The position numbers were made by a program, and so were the translations under genes. The notes under the pieces were generated by a model. The model was not told the DNA's origin. It was given only the letters and a program-made list of their open reading frames with translations, and made no database searches. From Schmidtea polychroa (lineage: Eukaryota): 64,000 nucleotides of DNA. The DNA lies in assembly GCA_044892525.1 (NCBI GenBank), contig CM097888.1:53816001-53880000 (forward strand), read 5' to 3'. Below are positions 2,090-13,688 of the stretch, in pieces (positions within the stretch are counted from its first letter, which is position 1; each line of letters opens with the position of its first letter).

Positions 2090-3519
2090 TAGTAATGATA
2101 ATAGTAATAATAATAATAGAAATAAAATTAATAGAAATAAAATTATTATTATTATACAAATAAACAAATAATACAAATAATAATATTAATGAATATTTTT
2201 TAATATTGAATGATTTAAAAATAATATTCAGCTTCTCAAATCCAGGTCAACCTTTCTCATCTGTGACTTGAAAATCATAAAAGCCCCCTGACAGTTTGTA
2301 TTTATTTTGAAGAAATATTTGAGGATATTTTATTAGTGGCTCCAAGCAAAGGAATGGAATTATTTATCATTAGCTTCAAAGAAAAATTGGATGAATTTTT
2401 GGATAGGAAATCAAAATTACGAACAATTATCATTGAAATAAAACTTGTACTCGTTCTTAGAAAATAATGAAAAAATCTGAAACTGATATTTATAAATTGA
2501 TCAAAATAGAAGTAAAATGTGCAATAAGTCATAAAATAGTGAATTTAGAAACAAAAATTCATATTTTATTTATTATTGCCAAAGGAATTTAGTGACCCTA
2601 ACATAGAGAAACGTGCAATAAACCTATTTCTATAAAAATAATTTATATTTAATAATTTACACAGAGTTGAATCCAAATAAAATGTTCTAGCATAAATATT
2701 TTAACCTGAATACTTAGAAAGTTTATTTTATATATATATATGCAAAAAATAAATACATTTTTAAGAAAAATAATTTTTTATTATATAATTTATTGAATTT
2801 TTTTTTAATATTATGAACAGTTTTTATCATATTTTTGCCAGTAGTTTTAATATTTGTCATTATTTCAAGTAAGTGTATTTATATTTTCTAAATATGAATT
2901 AATTGAATTTCATAGTATACCTTAATTATGGTTAAACGTACCGTAATTTATGGGATTCGGTGAATAAGCCAATATTTAATATAATGCCTATAATTTAATG
3001 TCAAATTTGGCTATTATACACATCCATTTATTATATGTATGTTTTTATATATTATTGAAACTTTAAAAGAATGTCATTTAGATCAGGACTTTTCAAACTG
3101 GGGTCCGCGGACCCCAAGGGTTCCGTGAGCGATTTTATGAGGGTCCGTATCGATTTTAAATATTCTTAAACAAATAATAAGATGCACACTATTGATTCAA
3201 TTTTTGTGTATGTCTGTGTTATTTAATGATTTTTATTGCATTTAATATTAAAACATTTTACGTCTCTCAACATCGAAAATTGTCTAGTTTATATGTGGTG
3301 TTTTGCATTTATACTTTTGGAATCAAATATAAATTATCTGAAATAAAAATTTATGTGTTTGTATTTTAAATATACTTAAATATCATTTGTTTTGTTATTG
3401 TCCTTATGTATTAATGATTATACTGAAATTTTAAAACTAAATGCAAATTTTCGTTTTAATACATCATTTAAAAAGCTGAAAAACAAATTATTGAAATTAA
3501 TTTGCAATTACTGTAATAT

Positions 3520-4374
3520 CTAATTTCCAGTTATTTCATAAGGCCCTTCATAACGTTCATCCACCTTTCTAGTATTTTCTTTTTTAACCAATACTTGGTC
3601 TCCAACTTCAAAATTCCTATAATTTTGTGTAATTAAATTCTTTTCTATGTTTTGATTATGTTTAATTCCCTCCACAATCTCCCTTCTCCGATTATTAGCA
3701 TCATTATTTTGTATATCCAAATTCTCTTTTTCCATCCATTGTCTACAAATATTCCGCCCAAATATTATTTCAGAGGTCGAAAATCCGGTTGTCTGCTGTA
3801 TCGTCGCATTTAACATAAATTCCACATCTGTCAATATTTCTGCCCAATCTTTATGCCGTTTGTCTTTTAACGTAATTGCAATTGCATCCCTTATAGTTCT
3901 AAATTGCCTCTCAACTAAACCGTTTGTACTATGATGATATGGGCTTGAATATATTATTGTAATATGATGCGTTTTCAACACTTTTAAAAGGAGTTGAGAT
4001 TCAAATGTTTTTCCTCTATCGGAGTGAATGATTTTAGGGGCACCAAATTTCAAAATCCAATTTTCTCTTAAAATCTTTGCCGTCGTCTTTTCATCCTGAT
4101 AAGCAACTGCCGTCAATGATATATACCTACTGAATTGATCAATTATAGCTAAAATATATTGTTTTTCATGAATTGTTTTCTTAAATGGTCCGCAGAAATC
4201 AATAAATATCTCTTTGAAAACTTCATCTGTACTCTGTTTAATCAGCGGTTCTTTTGTTCGTCTTGTCCACGTCTTCCGTTTCTGACACTGTTCACAATTT
4301 TCAATCACTCTTCTAACTTCATTTTCATATTTTTCCGTGCATAATCGTAAATTTTTTTTACCCCTGCGTGACAT
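3520..4374 (-). pseudogene. Gypsy integrase (DDE), truncated in the C-terminal GPY/F region
   Basis: CEQC of the HHCC finger, FIDFCGPF, IHSDRGKTFES, NGLVERQFRTI and YEGPY are present. The stop codon comes from flanking CTAAT. Frameshifted relative to the upstream ORF inside the HHCC motif. Confidence 0.92.
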
Positions 4375-5927
4375 AAGTCTTTATGTATATTAAAAATTAC
4401 ACCTTCATTATTTACTTTTATTTCTTGGTCCATATTTTCTATGGCCAATATTTTAGTTTTATTTTTATCTACCTTGGCGTTTTCATGAACTGTTTGGCAC
4501 TGACTACATGAAGTACAGTCTTTCCTTGATAGGGCATCTTCGTTAGCATGCAATTCTCCTTTTCTGTATTCTAATTTGATATCTAACCCACTTAAATAGT
4601 TAATCCATGTCTGGAATTGTGCTGTTATTGGCTTTTTTGTATTTATCATAAAGGTTATAGCTTTATGATCGGTTCTTAAAGTAAATCTTTTTCCATATAG
4701 ATAGTGTTTGAAATGCTGAGTAAAATGATAGATTGCAAGCAATTCCTTTCGCGTAATGCAGTAACCGATTTCGTGCTTATTCATTGTCTTTGATCCATAT
4801 GCAATAACTTGTTCTTGTCCATTACTACTCAACTGCGAAAGCACTCCCCCAATCGTATCGAAACTAGCATCTGTATCTAAAATAAAGGTTTTTCGTAAAT
4901 CCGGAAATCCTAGTACTGGGGTAGACGTTAACGCTTTCTTTAGCGTGTTGAAATTTGTTTCACATTCTTCAGTCCATATAAGTTTATCTTTGTTAGACCC
5001 ACATAACCTTTCTAATGGTCTTGCATACTTGGCGTAATCTTTAACAAATTTTCGATAATAATTTGTTAAGCCTAGAAAGCTTCTTAAACGTTTAATACAT
5101 TTTGGTTTTTCATATTCTTGCATTGCTTTTATCTTTTCATAATCTGTCTTAATACCATTTTTATTTATAATGTGTCCCAAAAATTTTATTTCTAGTTTGT
5201 TAAAACCACATTTTTCTAAGCTTATTTTCAAACCAGCTACTTGAATCTTTCGAAAAACTCTTTCTAGTCTTATTTTATGTTCGATTTCATTGTCTGCAAA
5301 TATAAGGATATCGTCTAAATAAACAATTGCTTCTCTCCAATTAAGATCACCCAAAACTTCAGTCATTAATTTTTGAAAAGTTGCTGGGGCAGCTGCAATT
5401 CCAAAAGGCATTCGGTTAAAACAATATTGACCATCTTTTGTTGAAAATGCAGTCTTTATTTTTGATTCCTCTTCTAATTCCACTTGATAATAAACATTAC
5501 CAAGATCGATAGTGCTAAATATCTGTGCTCCATTTAGGATATCCATCATCTCTTCAATATTTGGTATTGGAAATCGAGGTCTCTCCGTAATTGCATTTAA
5601 TGCCCGAAAATCCAAACATATTCTAATATCTGATTTATTCTTTTTTAACACACATACCAATGGGCTATTCCACACCGAGTCACATTTTTTTATAATTCCT
5701 GCTTCTTCCATGTCTTTTAGCATGTCTTGTATTTTGTGAGCAATATGAATCGGCTGACGTCTAGGATTAATTGTCACTGGGCTACCTCTAGTAACTATCT
5801 TATGTTTAATTAACTGTGTTTTTCCTACATCCCATTTATTTTTCATGAATATATCCGAAAATTCTTTAAGTAATTTATTAATCGTTGGGTCGATAATTCC
5901 TTTCAAATTGTTTTCCTCTAAATTCAT
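4305..5927 (-). pseudogene. Gypsy reverse transcriptase-RNase H ORF
   Basis: WNSPLVCV, RICLDFRALN, FNRMPFG, IVYLDDILIF (YLDD), FLGLTNYYRKF, FILDTDAS, RKELLAI, LRTDHKAI, then a CxxCxxC motif and the first integrase His residues. Confidence 0.95.
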
Positions 5928-6604
5928 TAATTGATTTTTAATTTTACTTTAGTTACTGCCTGTAATTTAATATCAAAACAATTCATCATTTCTACGCCTG
6001 CAATTACGCTCGGGTTAATCTTATTTGCCACAAAGAATCTTATTACCAATTCTAATCCCGAAATTCTCACTTTTAGTAATATTGTTCCTATGATTTTAAG
6101 TGTGCTCTCGTTTGCACATGTAACCATAATATTGGATTCCCCTATTTTATCATGCATCTTTAATTTACTAACAACATCTTCGCTAATCACGTTTATTCTA
6201 GCCCCGGTATCCAAAAGAAAATCAACTTTTATTTTATTTTCCAGCCAAATACCTACACTAGGTCTGCCATTCATTCTTTCGTAAACGAATTTAGGTGCAA
6301 AAGCTCTATCTTTATTTTCATTAACTTTATTATTAATTATATCGATACTCATAATCTTATCAATTTTGTTATTAATTTCATAAAAACTATATTCAAAATA
6401 ATTTTCAAAGTCAAAACATTCACAATCATTCACAATTACAACATTAATTTTTAAATCATCTTTAAATTCATTCATTAAGGAAATCTTGAAATCACAAGCA
6501 TTCAAATTCAAACATTCTGTGTCAACAATATACTTACTTAAACCAAATTTATGGCTCCTAGCAACTCCCTTGAAACTGGAGCCTCCCCTTTTAGCTGTTC
6601 GCAA
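5927..6604 (-). pseudogene. Gypsy pol N-terminus / aspartic protease, in the -1 frame relative to gag
   Basis: FLLDTGARINVI catalytic motif and VIAGVEMM (ILG-like). Overlaps the gag 3' end. Its stop overlaps the RT ORF ATG (TAATG). Confidence 0.9.
6544..6550 (-). promoter_or_regulatory. Candidate -1 ribosomal frameshift slippery heptamer A AAU UUG
   Basis: Fits X XXY YYZ in the gag frame, one codon before the gag stop, inside the gag/pol overlap; pol is in the -1 frame. Confidence 0.6.
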
Positions 6605-7592
6605 TCTTTTTGCATGTCATCCTGTTGAATCAGCTCTCCTTCCTCGTATTCGTAGTCGTATATCGCATTGCATTGTCTTCGATGTGGTCCTCTGTCTGAA
6701 GATTAGTTTCTGCTTTGATATTGTCCTCTGGATCCAAATTGTTTTTGATTTCTATCATAATTTCTTCCGTTGTAATATGCTTCTGTTTTAACTGAATTTC
6801 TTCTGATGTCCCAACATTGATACTTGAAATGACCATTTTTGGAACATTGAGAGCATTTTACGTTTGGGCATTCTGCTCGAATATGTCCTTGCTCTCCACA
6901 CGCCCAACATCTCTGCAGTCTAAATCGCCTGGTCCCGTTCTTCCAGTCACTTTTATTTGGCATATTGAAGTTCACGGCCTCATTGGTTCTAGAGTTAGAA
7001 AATATTGGCGTCTTATTCTGTTGGTACAACTGAGTTTTTCTCGGACTTTTGACTGTCTCCGCATATGATTTATTTTCATGTAGAGATGCTAATGATTGTT
7101 CACTTGAAAGCTCTTTTTGAATTTCTTCCATTCTTGATATCACTTCCTTGGCCTTATCTACTGATTTAACTTCTCTTAATTTCAATTCTTTTTTTGTTTC
7201 CATATCTTCCATTGCATTCTGCATTAAAAATAACATTAATGCCGGTTTTGTTAATTTGTGTCGAAGAACATTGTCGACGAGCTTTTCCACTTTATTGAAA
7301 AATTCGGTGCACGAGTCATTTCCTTTTCGATATCTTAAAGCTGCGTCTAGATCCATGGCTAGATTTTTCCTTGGCTCGAACGCTTTTCTTAATCTTTCTT
7401 CATAGCCTTAATAATCGCTCTGTACTTCTTCATATTTCTGGATCAACTCTACCGACAGAAAGGCCTTAGTAACAATTTCTTGAGTTTCTTGTGATTGTTG
7501 AGTGAATTCGAAAAATCTCTTCAATTCCAAAATAAAAATTTCTAAATCACCATTTGGCAGCAATTGATTAGGTGGCTTGATATAGTTCTGGA

Positions 7593-7610
7593 GTCCTGGC
7601 GTGGTCGCCA
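7593..7610 (-). promoter_or_regulatory. Primer binding site TGGCGACCACGCCAGGAC, probably for tRNA-Arg(UCG)
   Basis: Starts directly after the LTR terminal CA. Its complement GTCCTGGCGTGGTCGCCA reads as a tRNA 3' end with CCA. The isotype is assigned from recalled eukaryotic tRNA-Arg(UCG) acceptor stems (GACCACG/CGTGGTC-G). Confidence 0.8.
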
Positions 7611-7876
7611 TGTTAGAAAAAGACATAGTTTCACAGAAATATTTATTCACTACAAAAATCTAAACGGAACACACAATCGTTATACTATTTATAGTACATT
7701 GAATTGCGTAATCTACAAAAGGGAAAATTATTAGTTTAAGTGATACTGTTGACACAGAAGACAAACATACTTACTTAATTTAGTTATACAAGCATTCCCG
7801 CATCATTCAATAGATATCAAGGTCTAGTGACCTGGTTATGTAAGTAATTCTTTGGAAATTATTATATCATCTTACA
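7611..7876 (-). repeat. 5' LTR of the Gypsy element (266 bp)
   Basis: TGTAAGA...TCTAACA termini. TATAAATA at 7686-7693 (minus strand) followed by AATAAA about 40 nt downstream. Abuts the PBS. Confidence 0.85.
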
Positions 7877-7974
7877 CTAATATTAAATATTTTATTTATT
7901 ATTGTGGATGGATAAATATGTGAAACGTAAAAAACTAGATATCTCAGAATGCGAGACAAACGAAAGGTAGGAAA

Positions 7975-9789
7975 ATGCGCAATCAGAAGAAAAAGTTACT
8001 ATTTTTTTCAACAAGAAAGCAAAAACAATCATTAAAAGTAAGAAAATATGATAAAGATTACATCAAATACGGGTTTATCGAATGCTCCTCAAAACCAAAC
8101 AGCCCTCAATGTTTAATTTGTGGCAAAATTTTATCAAACGATACAGTAAAACCAGCTAAATTGCAAAGACATTTAATAACAAATCATCCTGATGTAGCAA
8201 ATAAATCGAAAAAACTTTTTGAAATAAAAAGGGAAGAACATGTTAACCAAATAATTTTTTTAAAATCAACATTAATATCAAAAGAAAATTTGCTAAAAGC
8301 ATCTTTTTTAGTGGCGTTGAGAGTCGCCCGTGCTAAAAAACCTCATACGATTGCCGAAGATTTAATTTTACCATCTGCAATTGATATGTGTAAAACTGTT
8401 CTGGATGACAAATCTGCTGCAAAATTGAAACAAATTCCTTTATCTGATAACACGATCGGGCGAAGAATTGAAGAAATATCAAATTATATAAAAATACAGT
8501 TAATCGATAGACTTAAAATGGGATATTTTTCGATCCAGTTGGATGAAACTACAGATGTTGCTAATCAGTCACAATTACTGGCTTATGTGCGATATTGTTG
8601 GGAAGGTGAAATATTAGAAGATTTTTTGTTTTGTCAACCAATGCATTGCAGAACTACTGGAGAGGAAGTTTTTAATGTGATTGATAAATTTTTATCACAG
8701 TCACAACTGTTGTGGAAGGACTGCATTGGCATATGCACAGATGGTGCAGCATCAATGACTGGGAAGCATATGGGTGTTGTGAGTCGTGCAAAAAGACAAG
8801 CACCAAATATTACAATTACACATTGCTTGATTCATCGTGAATCATTGGCAGCAAAGAATATGCAAGAATCATTAGCTCAAGTGCTATTTTCTTGTGTCAA
8901 AGTGGTAAACCTAATTAAAACAAGACCTTTGTACACTCGTACTTTTGCAAATCTTTGTGATGAGCTTGGTGCTGAGCATTCTAACCTTTTACGCCATACA
9001 GAAGTACGTTGGCTATCGCGAGGTAAAATAATACAACGTGCATATGAGCTTCGAAACGAATTGTTAATTTTTTTGACTGAGTATGATTCAGATCTTGCTT
9101 TACTCTTGCTTGATAAAATTTGACTTGGCAAACTTGCTTATTTAGCAGATATATTTAATTTATTAAATGAACTGAACACATCCCTCCAAGGAAGAAATTC
9201 AAACATAGTACGAAATCACGAAAAGATAGCAGCATTTAAAAAGAAGCTTTCTATATGGAAAACAAGAATTGAAAAAGGGATTTTTGATATGTTTCCAACT
9301 TTAGATAATCACATCAACAGCTCTTCTTCTAATACGTTTGATTTAGTAATTTGTGATGTTAGACAACATTTACAATCACTGGCTGAACATTTTGATGTAT
9401 ATTTCACAAACAAAAATACTGAACATTATGACTGGATCCGGTGCCCCTTTGAAGTTGAAAGTACTAACCTGTCCGGTCGCGCACAAGAGGAACTGGCCGA
9501 ACTGTCATCTGATCGAATTTTTAAAAATATTTTTAAACAACAATCACTGTCCTCTTTTTTGTTGTGTGTTGCCTCGGAGTATCCGATATTATCTGATATG
9601 GCTGTCAAAGTTTTGCTGCCATTTTCAACGACATATTTGTGTGAAATTGGTTTTTCAACCCTTACGAATATTAAAACCAGGTATAGATCAACACTTGTTG
9701 TTGAAAATGACGTGAGAGTATGTTTATCAAAAATAGCACCTAGAATTGATAATTTGTGCAAAAACAAACAATCCCACCCTTCCCATTGA
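7975..9789 (+). pseudogene. Buster/ZBED5-SCAND3-like hAT transposase (604 codons) with a single in-frame TGA at 9121-9123
   Basis: BED finger (CLIC...HLITNH), IQLDETTD, ICTDGAASM, HCLIHRE, HTEVRWLSRG, YLCEIGFS and a C-terminal dimerisation region. ORFs 7975-9123 and 9289-9789 are in the same frame, with open sequence between them (DKI*LGKLAYLADIF, where Trp is expected). Confidence 0.95.
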
Positions 9790-10290
9790 CATTATTTTCA
9801 TAATTAGAATTAATTTGCATGTAAATATATGAAATTTATTTTATTAAACGTATTTAGTTAATGTTCTATAATAATTTCTTTTTAATAAATTTAATTTTAT
9901 AAAAATATTAATAATTATATATCAGGTTTTACAAACAAAATAGTAATTTTTTAGTAAAATGGTCCGTAAACTAAGCGTAATAAAAATTAGGGGTCCCTTG
10001 TTTAAAAAGTTTGAAAAGCCCTGATTTAGATCATTACCAACTGCGGTTTTTTGTAGAGGTCATATTTAATTAAAAAAGATCTTATTTAATGTTAATTTTT
10101 GTAATGACACACAATTATAGGCTAGTTTTTTGATTTATTATTAAAGGTCTTGTCAAAATTGTCCTTTTAATTGTGCACAGATGAAGTTGTCTTACGAAAT
10201 AATGTCTTTATTATCTATACAACTCAAAGTTGAGTTTTCGGAGTTTTCGGTCATTATTTTCTAAAAATTTGTAAAAATGTCTGTAAATGA

Positions 10291-10460: not shown

Positions 10461-12663
10461 GTTCGTATGTTTATATAATATACACGCATTGATTTTTATT
10501 TATACATTATAGATGCGTTTTGTTCACTGCAAACGGGTGTATTCCACGAAACCCGATGTACTTCTGAGTTTGATAAGTCATGTTATTATGTCAAATAGTT
10601 CTTTTAATTTAATAATAAATAAATAAAATCAAGAAACATAATTATTTAAATGCATGAATTATTGCTGTCTGATATTAAGTTTAACTAAAAAATTAAAGTT
10701 CTTTTATCTTTTTTGCCATTCCGTACTGCATTCTCTTTCCGGGAAAATGAAATTCTTAATTTTATATGATCAATTCCTAAACAAAAATTCTAGAAATATC
10801 GTCTGACCGATTTCCAGAAAACATGAGAATTAAGTATAAACCTATTTCATCATTTTGTAATCATAAAAATTCATCATCCACATGTCTAAGCATGAATTAT
10901 TTATTATTAATTCTAACAATTTTATAATTATAATGCATTTTTACCAATTAAGAATATTTTATAATTTACATATTAATTGACAACATGCTCTGTTTGTTTC
11001 AGCTTAGCATTAAAAAGTAAATAAATTATTATAAATTTCATAATTTTTATAATTTGCGACAAATTTTATTTGTAATTTGTTTTAGTATTCGATTTTTAAA
11101 TGATGAATATTTTATATCGCTAATTCTACAAGTGAATAAACAAAAAGAAAATAATTATTTTATTCATAAAAAATAATTTCAAGTATTTTCCCAATATAAT
11201 TGTTTTTTTTCTCTTAAAATGTCTCAATTGTATACTTTGATAATTATATCTTTTCAAAACAATGGACAATAGTGCAGAGGCGAGTGTAGCAGAAACAAAA
11301 AAGTAACACAAAAAGATTTTGTATTTTGTAAAAGTAAAATTTATTTAAATGACTGTTTTAAATTGTTTTTAAAATGTTCACTATTTTGTAATATTCAGTA
11401 AATATTAGATTAAAAAAATAAATCAATAAAAATAGAAAAACAAATAATTTACAAAGAATTTACAAATTAAAAAAAAATTTTATAATAACTTAATTTTTTT
11501 CTCGAAAATGAGTAAAAATGAGAATCCAATTAAATTTTATTATTAAATAAATATTAATAAATAAAATCATATTTTAAACGTATATAAAGGACATCATATT
11601 TTATTAGGGCGATACCAAAATTATTTTTGTTAATTAATTTTTTAGTAAATTATTTCTATTCTGATCTCATATTGATTTTAAAAAGCAAAGGAAAGAACCT
11701 TTTTTCAGCAGATTTACGGCCAAGTATTGGTTCAGAGTTCATAGAAATTGGCATAAAGTTAAAATATAACGAAAGTCAAAATACAAATATTAGATGAATA
11801 ACTAAATGCAGTACCCAAAGAAGATTCAATGTATTCTGCAAAGGATATGACAAAATGTCTCAACATAAATAATTTAAACATTCAATGGCAATTAAAAAAT
11901 ACTTTTACAGTTTAATTATTGTTTATGTAAAATGAGTTTAGTTCAATAAAATAGAAATATAAAATTTCCTTTAACTTTATTTTATATCAGACTACAGATC
12001 AATATTTTGTTTTATATTTAACGTGAAATTTTGCTGGCCAATCAAATTTTCTGAATATAATCACCATAAGCTTACTGAAAAATATTACGCAACGTAATAT
12101 TACAATAAATTAATTTAATAATATATCTAAATGACTTTAATTAGTAAATTTAAAAGTTATGAATTTAGAATTGATATGTAAAATAATTTATTTATTTTAA
12201 TGTTTTATTAGCATTTAAAACTTTTCATAAATATTTTCGAAAATGACAAAATTGGTAAATAATTTCTATGATTTTGTAATTTTGAAATTATTTTAAATAT
12301 TAATACATGCTTCAATTTTAACAAAAACAAATTTTGTTTGACTTTATTTACTTTTCAAACGAATTTAAAAAGAATGAATATAAAAAGAATAAAAGATAAA
12401 TGGGGAAAATTTTTAAAAATTACAATTAATTCTACAATAAATTATATATCAAAATGTTATCAGAATTAATAAATAGAAACAATTATAAAAGTTAAATTTA
12501 ACAAAAGAGAAAAAATTGTTCAAAATACGAACAAGATTAAGCTATATGAAGTTAATGAAAACTTTTCATTGAAAAGGTAAATTGAACAAAAATACGATAG
12601 TTTAAAGCACAAGGCGGTTGTGGATTTCAAGTATATAAATAGATTAACAATGATATTTATGTA

Positions 12664-12890
12664 CCGTATATTTCGGCGTATAAGACGACCCTTAAAGTCA
12701 AAAAATCACCCTTGAAAATTGTGGGTCGTCTTATACAACCGATATAAAAGAAAGTATTACAGTACAGGTAGTTGTATTTATACTAGTTGTATTTATACTA
12801 CTACAACCGATATATGATAAATCATAAAAATTTGCACTAATTTTGTACCTCGTCTTATCTGACGGTCGCCTTATACGCCGAAATATACGG
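12664..12890. mobile_element. Tc1/mariner-superfamily (Tc2/pogo-like) MITE, 227 bp
   Basis: 27-bp TIRs CCGTATATTTCGGCGTATAAGACGACC with 1 mismatch; TA on both flanks. Confidence 0.9.
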
Positions 12891-13688
12891 TATTTATTTG
12901 TCATTTTAATGAATGTGAATAGAACCGAATGTATTTAGTATTTGTACTTAGGTATATATATATTTTTTAGGTATATAAAGAAGTTTTAGAAATTTTTTAT
13001 GAATTTACTTACATTAAAAATGATGTTTTAATTGTTTGAAAGTTTTGAAAGATTTAAATTATTGAATATTTAAACAAAAAAATTAATTTAATACAACTTC
13101 ATTTCTTTTATTATGTAAAATTTTATTATAAAATTGGAAATTTTAATTTAATAAAAATCGGAAAAATAAATTTCAAAATCTGTTTCCATTAATTTATAAA
13201 TTTAAATAAAATTTTTTATTTTAAAATTATCGTAAAAAAAACATAAGTTTTACAGAATCAAATTTAGTGAATTTATTTTTCCAAAAATACTTTAAGAAAA
13301 AAGTGAAAATTTAGTAATTGCAAAAATAAAATATTACACTGGAATATTAATCTGAATTTCAGAATTCTCCATCAAATAACCAATTGTGTTTTTTTGATTG
13401 AAATGGTAATTTTATTGAGAGTTGATGATTATTTCGTTTAAATTATTTCATGCAATATCGCATTACTTTTCTGGATGTAAATAATCATAAATTTCAATTT
13501 AAGTATAATATTATGCTGAAACCTCTTTTGGGCTAATTAATTTGTTTATGAATTTGAATTACATAAAAATAAAAGCTTGAGGATTTTCAAAATAATAAAA
13601 GAAAACTTGTGAGATTAATTTAGGGCTTCATAATTTAAAAGATCTACATAATAAAACAAAGTATAAAGATAAGAATATATAATCTAAT

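Follow-up and report, generated by a model that had tools for sequence, protein, structure and literature searches.

A candidate frameshift pseudoknot split between the gag stop and the U3 region in a clade of Ty3/Gypsy retrotransposons related to an element of Schmidtea polychroa

A compact Ty3/Gypsy retrotransposon of Schmidtea polychroa and several related families carry, at the stop codon of gag, a segment that is complementary to the U3 region of their own long terminal repeat (LTR). We regard it as almost certain that this is a real and conserved long-range RNA pairing. Judged from sequence comparison, its role is probably that of a -1 frameshift pseudoknot that is split across the element and has its last strand in the 3' U3. 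The 17-nt match through which the pairing was noticed is best read as a bridge that would deliver a second stretch of U3 to a hairpin located upstream of the gag stop. If this is true, U3, which is usually treated as promoter DNA, works as RNA in translation, Pol synthesis is tied to full-length RNA, and a route exists for handing the RNA from translation to reverse transcription.

The window, i.e., the whole stretch of 64,000 nucleotides that was analysed, contains on its minus strand a Ty3/Gypsy element (family A) in which zinc knuckle, protease, RT, RNase H and integrase domains were found, and which is nested inside a DNA transposon that we take to be of the hAT/Buster type. The assignment to Ty3/Gypsy is based on LTRs, primer-binding site (PBS), PPT, target duplication and the pol order PR-RT-RH-IN, with the evidence for PPT and 3' LTR taken from full copies of family A, as the copy in the window spans 7876 to 3524 and has neither. 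Full copies measure 4.73 kb, with LTRs of 266 bp and target duplications of 5 bp, and their two LTRs are 99% identical; the 5' LTR of the window's copy stands in for the absent 3' LTR. Near-identical copies are abundant in the genome, with 268 first-look candidates for an internal probe and 738 for an LTR probe. Given that pol ends within the first bases of the 3' LTR in full copies, U3 constitutes the sole 3' untranslated region before R. The features of the window, in window coordinates, are as follows.

3082..10022, plus strand: hAT/Buster-like DNA transposon (presumed name) hosting the Gypsy copy, with terminal inverted repeats and a weak zf-BED match
7939-9789, plus strand: hAT-like transposase ORFs, interrupted by a stop, within 3082..10022
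3524..7876, minus strand: compact Ty3/Gypsy copy of family A, 3'-truncated, from domain matches and full-copy comparison
7611..7876, minus strand: 5' LTR of family A, from comparison with full copies
7743..7759, minus strand: U3 arm of the main bridge helix (17 bp, one G-U), from complementarity
7734..7741, minus strand: U3 arm of the basal bridge helix (8 bp with 6543-6536), from complementarity
7719..7725, minus strand: distal strand of the predicted pseudoknot stem 2, pairing with hairpin loop 6571-6565
7713..7714, minus strand: candidate splice acceptor AG in U3, from sequence motif
7686..7693, minus strand: TATA-like box, from motif
7642..7647, minus strand: candidate poly(A) signal AATAAA, from motif
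7594..7611, minus strand: PBS, with an in-frame gag ATG over the LTR/PBS border, from sequence
6538..7611, minus strand: gag ORF with zinc knuckle and, in the window's copy, two premature stops; stop codon 6540-6538
6589..6595, minus strand: place homologous to the C CCA AAH slippery site of the relatives, G CTA AAA in family A, from alignment
6553..6583, minus strand: hairpin with predicted stem 1 (6583-6578 with 6558-6553) and purine-rich loop 6571-6565, from comparison
6544..6550, minus strand: A AAT TTG heptamer, second candidate slip site, specific to family A, from sequence
6532..6537, minus strand: GTAAGT, 5' splice-site-like, directly 3' of the gag stop, from motif
6515..6543, minus strand: internal bridge arms (6543-6536 and 6531-6515), from complementarity

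Some further traits of the locus can be mentioned here. The PBS is translated, the in-frame gag ATG being formed by the last LTR base and the first two PBS bases (window 7594-7611), and the same ATG across the LTR/PBS border occurs in L001, L021, L036 and L075, a layout that is thus common to several families. At the other end of the element, pol reads through the PPT with no separate 3' leader (L001 4760-4782; also L036 and L040). The hAT-like element (window 3082-10022) would be about 2.6 kb long without its insert, and the 3' end of the Gypsy copy was lost inside it. Elsewhere in the window there is an inverted repeat of 71 nt, 90% complementary and with arms 7 nt apart (1941-2089), and a MITE-like inverted repeat of 42 nt around 173 nt (12649-12905).

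The inverted match reported by the first-pass annotation was confirmed: 6515-6531 and 7743-7759 are reverse complements at 16/17 positions, and the helix comprises 13 contiguous Watson-Crick pairs, or 17 contiguous pairs counting one G-U. It is longer than first noted, with 6543-6536 and 7741-7734 adding 8 bp that cross the gag stop. Within family A alone the match is modestly above chance. When the LTR was shuffled 1000 times and compared with the whole internal region, a 16/17 match arose in 12/1000 shuffles and a 17-bp helix allowing G-U in 128/1000. The neighboring 12-mer direct repeat is located as described (6530-6541 and 7767-7778), but a repeat of at least 12 nt was found in 189/1000 shuffles, and it was rejected as a meaningful unit; within U3 it may fold into a small hairpin that competes. 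The arms are conserved among copies, the internal arm being identical in 20/20 fetched copies and the U3 arm in 31/32 LTR matches, but these copies are 97-99% alike and the identity is therefore no evidence of selection. The distance of more than 3 kb between the arms is borne out by full copies, in which the U3 arm lies at LTR position 118 and the 3' LTR starts about 3,120 nt past the gag stop, whereas the placement of the arms in U3 is inferred from their position upstream of the TATA-like box and AATAAA and not from mapped transcript ends.

Stronger evidence comes from other families. Related elements were gathered from the same genome by RT similarity and by degenerate patterns, the latter giving 662, 1050 and 306 matches versus 1, 0 and 0 for reversed controls, and nine metagenome loci were added; RT identity of the relatives to family A is about 56-67%. 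For each of the six bridged families (A, B, C, D, F and G), the most stable pairing of the 45-nt segment at the gag stop is with the LTR of the same family, at -25 to -35 kcal/mol versus -12 to -21 kcal/mol for foreign LTRs, and the observed value was reached by 0/200 shuffles in each family (scans used a 5-nt step for the observed sequences and a 10-nt step for the shuffles, and bridge ends were set by eye from the output). In every one of them the gag stop lies within the bridge or next to it. Among windows placed along the whole element, the one after the stop ranked first of 91, 97, 97 and 90 in the four families tested (A, B, D and F). As the arm sequences differ from family to family, the compensatory change that the first-pass annotation had suggested looking for among copies is present at the level of families, where the bridge covaries. 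Families D and G are sisters, so that the six bridged families amount to about five independent cases.

Other relatives do not show this pairing. The bridge was tested in four of them (E, H, M41 and M44), whereas I, M42 and M45 offered no usable LTR. No bridge-like pairing was seen in E (123/200 shuffles), M41 (85/200) or H (15/100), with the LTRs of E and M41 taken as the 334 nt upstream of the primer site, and no bridge was found farther downstream in E, M41 or M44. M44 has a weak U3 match (8/200 shuffles). At locus L044, the strand that could serve as a local stem 2 (gag stop +5..+30) can also pair with positions 149-186 of its LTR (8/200 shuffles), and it is possible that this U3 pairing is a competing or intermediate state.

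All 13 types, bridged or not, have a hairpin just upstream of the gag stop that was absent from the first-pass annotation. Its stem 1 is paired in 65/65 cells over five positions, one of which has changed on both sides. In the six bridged families, the loop of this hairpin has a Watson-Crick partner of 5-9 bp in U3 (7, 8, 9, 5, 6 and 5 bp), located 3-12 nt past the bridge, and none of these families has a local loop partner of over 4 bp. Shuffled windows matched this stem 2 in 0-5/400 cases by energy and in 0-18/400 by length; its core is Watson-Crick in 30/30 cells across five loop positions, four of which have changed on both sides. In family A, 7719..7725 and 6571-6565 form seven Watson-Crick pairs in the common variant, with one G-U in the window's copy, and 7719..7725 possibly doubles as a polypyrimidine tract. 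The LTRs of families F and G fit the three-helix arrangement, which had been framed before they were inspected. Stem 2 is not family-specific by energy, as a foreign U3 window was equal or better in 3/6 rows and tied in a fourth, and a nested fold is also conceivable in which the U3 pyrimidines of the window's copy pair with the spacer rather than with the loop. A variant of family C (L091 and L092) has an altered loop, its own LTR being missing.

The seven remaining types (E, H, I, M41, M42, M44 and M45) carry instead a C-rich local partner of 4-5 nt at 17-29 nt after stem 1. This is a conserved CTCCC-containing stretch 17-23 nt after the stem in E, I, M41, M42, M44 and M45, and TCCTC 29 nt after the stem in H; the automatic register search misplaced or poorly placed the partner in E, M41 and M42. 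Such stretches can pair over 4-5 bp with the purine-rich loop and would form an ordinary H-type pseudoknot. At the sequence level, the H-type arrangement is seen as a loop that pairs with a strand 3' of its stem, with covariation. Close relatives that possess local and distal forms of the same partner thus represent a natural experiment, if the proposed role is true.

Pol lies in the -1 frame and overlaps gag, and C CCA AAH occurs in the gag frame 6 nt upstream of the hairpin in 11/13 types, with one old copy being one base off (C CTA AAC) and family A having the non-canonical G CTA AAA at the same position. The A AAU UUG heptamer that the first-pass annotation had chosen is still a candidate in family A, but the slip site is upstream of the hairpin in 12/13 types. 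The heptamer was created by a two-codon extension, is located after stem 1, and lies 0 nt from the basal helix and 12 nt from the main helix; the same pair of codons is seen, at the protein level, in the related Gag P0002. Family A may use either of the two places. The long-range frameshift idea itself gains from the covariation among families, while its parts have to be rearranged: the 17-mer becomes a bridge to the hairpin, the slip site moves upstream and the repeat drops out as a chance occurrence. No positive support emerged for RNA circularisation in the service of strand transfer, or for dimerisation.

We propose that the three helices would form together in the full-length RNA. Stem 1 would be the hairpin 6 nt past the slippery position, stem 3 the bridge that joins the segment at the gag stop to U3 and loops out about 3.2 kb containing pol, and stem 2 the pairing of the hairpin loop with the U3 stretch just past the bridge. 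Such a knot would pause ribosomes, some of which would then shift -1 into the pol frame. The bridge, and with it the knot, would be undone both by a ribosome that has shifted and by reverse transcriptase once minus-strand synthesis reaches U3. Pol would accordingly be made only from RNA whose 3' end is intact, and no longer from RNA that is being copied, and an RNA without its 3' end would yield Gag only. Frameshift reporters made from the gag-pol junction alone would then miss the signal.

Kilobase-range frameshift stimulators have been described for plant RNA viruses. Long-distance (ALIL) -1 stimulators are covered, for barley yellow dwarf virus, red clover necrotic mosaic virus and pea enation mosaic virus RNA 2, in part of one source (PMC5009743), and CY1 umbravirus-like RNA provides a further comparison (PMC10602861, in part). 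The likeness is that a stem-loop about 6 nt past the shift site pairs kilobases away near the 3' end, and the notion of traffic control, as set out for barley yellow dwarf virus (PMC5009743), could apply here as well. Unlike ALIL stimulators, however, the one proposed here belongs to an LTR retrotransposon and would use its apical loop, pairing it with a U3 strand brought in by a separate bridge of 15-30 bp; in relatives the same partner is found locally. Nor did these elements show a conserved hairpin at the distal site that would present the partner. The split pseudoknot, as predicted, would work like the ALIL stimulators but is not one of them. Three-stemmed H-type pseudoknots, as those of SARS coronavirus and Rous sarcoma virus, also have stems 1 and 2 plus a third inside loop 3, but there stem 3 is local (PMC5009743, in part), whereas the loop closed by the proposed stem 3 of these elements would contain all of pol and span about 3.2 kb. 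Ty1 CYC5/CYC3 and the bipartite primer site of Ty3 are likewise LTR-retrotransposon cases in which a distant segment pairs with the 3' end of the RNA; as far as the relevant portions of these sources go, those pairings concern the 5' end and reverse transcription, and Ty1 and Ty3 shift +1 without such a structure (PMC9503155, PMC11381356). In Ty1 cyclization the 5' partner adjoins the primer-binding site, but that of family A sits at the gag stop, some 1,080 nt 3' of the PBS. In agreement with the first-pass annotation, a literature search, with the main survey (Gao et al., 2003) and supplements outside its scope, found no equivalent in LTR retrotransposons.

It can be argued that the bridge mainly serves splicing, moving an acceptor in U3 close to a donor that sits at the gag stop so that pol is removed as one intron and a gag-only mRNA results, as in Drosophila copia. 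In that case the hairpin loop, by pairing with U3, would cover the acceptor region and control the splice, and such a function can coexist with a frameshift role. The GTAAGT motif noted earlier is indeed present directly after the gag stop of family A, and GTAA occurs at +1 or +3 past the stop in 6/6 distal families, in two codon phases, and in 0/6 local types tested, the expectation being 0.026 per family. This motif tracks the distal form exactly and is left unexplained by the main frameshift model. A YAG is found 0-23 nt past the bridge in 6/6 families, in LTRs where YAG is common (2-7 per LTR). Spliced gag-only RNAs with a donor near the gag end are known from copia, BARE1 and EVD, the copia intron being all of pol (PMC5580714, in part), but these are Copia elements with one ORF, while here the donor and acceptor motifs came with no splicing in four contig sets. 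Compared with a full copy, 4/4 sets lacked a joint between gag stop and U3; these sets are only guessed to be RNA and their contigs drop rare forms; contigs from two runs cross the gag stop unbroken, and a genome search for a processed junction copy returned two matches, both point variants. Moreover, the position of the AG relative to the stem-2 strand varies among families (before, within or after it), the donor is partly or wholly paired within the bridge, and splicing does not account for the local loop partner of the relatives. We therefore consider splicing as the main function unlikely. The motif would also fit U1 binding that blocks early polyadenylation, by analogy with EVD (PMC5580714, in part). 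Somewhat less doubtful, though still speculative, is a master switch in which the paired fold would give Gag-Pol and hide donor and acceptor, the unpaired RNA would be spliced to a gag-only form, and the last strand of the pseudoknot would, within the clade, have switched more than once between a local position and the LTR.

The remaining alternatives fare worse. Fold-back of a poly(A) end toward the stop codon can shield RNA from nonsense-mediated decay, and the bridge might protect in this way an RNA with a 3.3-kb 3' region, or serve packaging or reverse transcription like Ty1 CYC5/CYC3. Its position at or next to the gag stop in all six families suits shielding, and end-to-end pairing matters in Ty1 and Ty3 (PMC9503155, PMC11381356, both in part), but local-type relatives lack a bridge although their 3' region is just as long, the 5' partner is found at the gag-pol junction rather than close to the primer site, and shielding leaves stem 2 and the local/distal swap unexplained, which makes this account decidedly improbable. 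Still less credit is due to a change confined to family A, in which, as the first-pass annotation had proposed, slipping would now occur on A AAU UUG, downstream of stem 1, with the bridge helix acting as the stimulator. Family A has lost C CCA AAH and gained the two codons that make the heptamer, with Gag P0002 showing the same pair of changes. Against this, the heptamer lies 12 nt from the main helix and 0 nt from the basal one, the usual spacer between slip site and structure being 5-9 nt, and stem 1 and a perfect 7-bp stem 2 have been retained although both would be melted before the ribosome reached the heptamer. As for a chance match or a functionless template-switch scar, the single match in family A is only modestly rare (12 to 128 of 1000) and the direct repeat is at chance level, but six families have different arms at the same place, with 0/200 shuffles each, and a second helix covaries. 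Six different sequence solutions at one place rule out the scar that the first-pass annotation had put forward as its alternative, and the probability left to this explanation as a whole is close to nil.

Two observations on intron-like motifs can be added. U3 positions 7713-7774 make up a 62-nt intron-like unit with GTAAGT, a branch-like CTAAT, pyrimidines and AG, which encloses both bridge arms and the stem-2 strand, and no such joint was seen in the four contig sets. Local types carry GTAA 43-57 nt past the gag stop instead (L051, L041, L042 (+43), L044, L082 (+57)).

An unrooted RT tree was built from 17/22 loci and 18 proteins, with five loci dropped for want of an RT match or for a short one, and with family I absent. 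Families B, D and G fall into a well-supported group together with the local types H, E and M41-45, E being a long branch, and A and C+F are located outside. The distal families thus do not form one group, and from their separate placement it follows that the distal form was either ancestral and lost, or gained more than once. With regard to wider distribution, viral contigs contained no relative by protein, and the one viral-contig pattern match (L090) turned out to be a phage region without RT. With P0003 as Gag query, the matches were in essence family A once more. In metagenome and Logan assemblies the clade is large (P0006-P0077, 58-79% RT identity), and named database proteins among the matches are only 33-43% identical. 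Head-to-tail arrays were also observed, with a spacing of 4.74 kb for family B (G000:C2:119596056-119615625 and C1:94026696-94036223) and of 9.1 kb for family F (C1:189012097-189075864).
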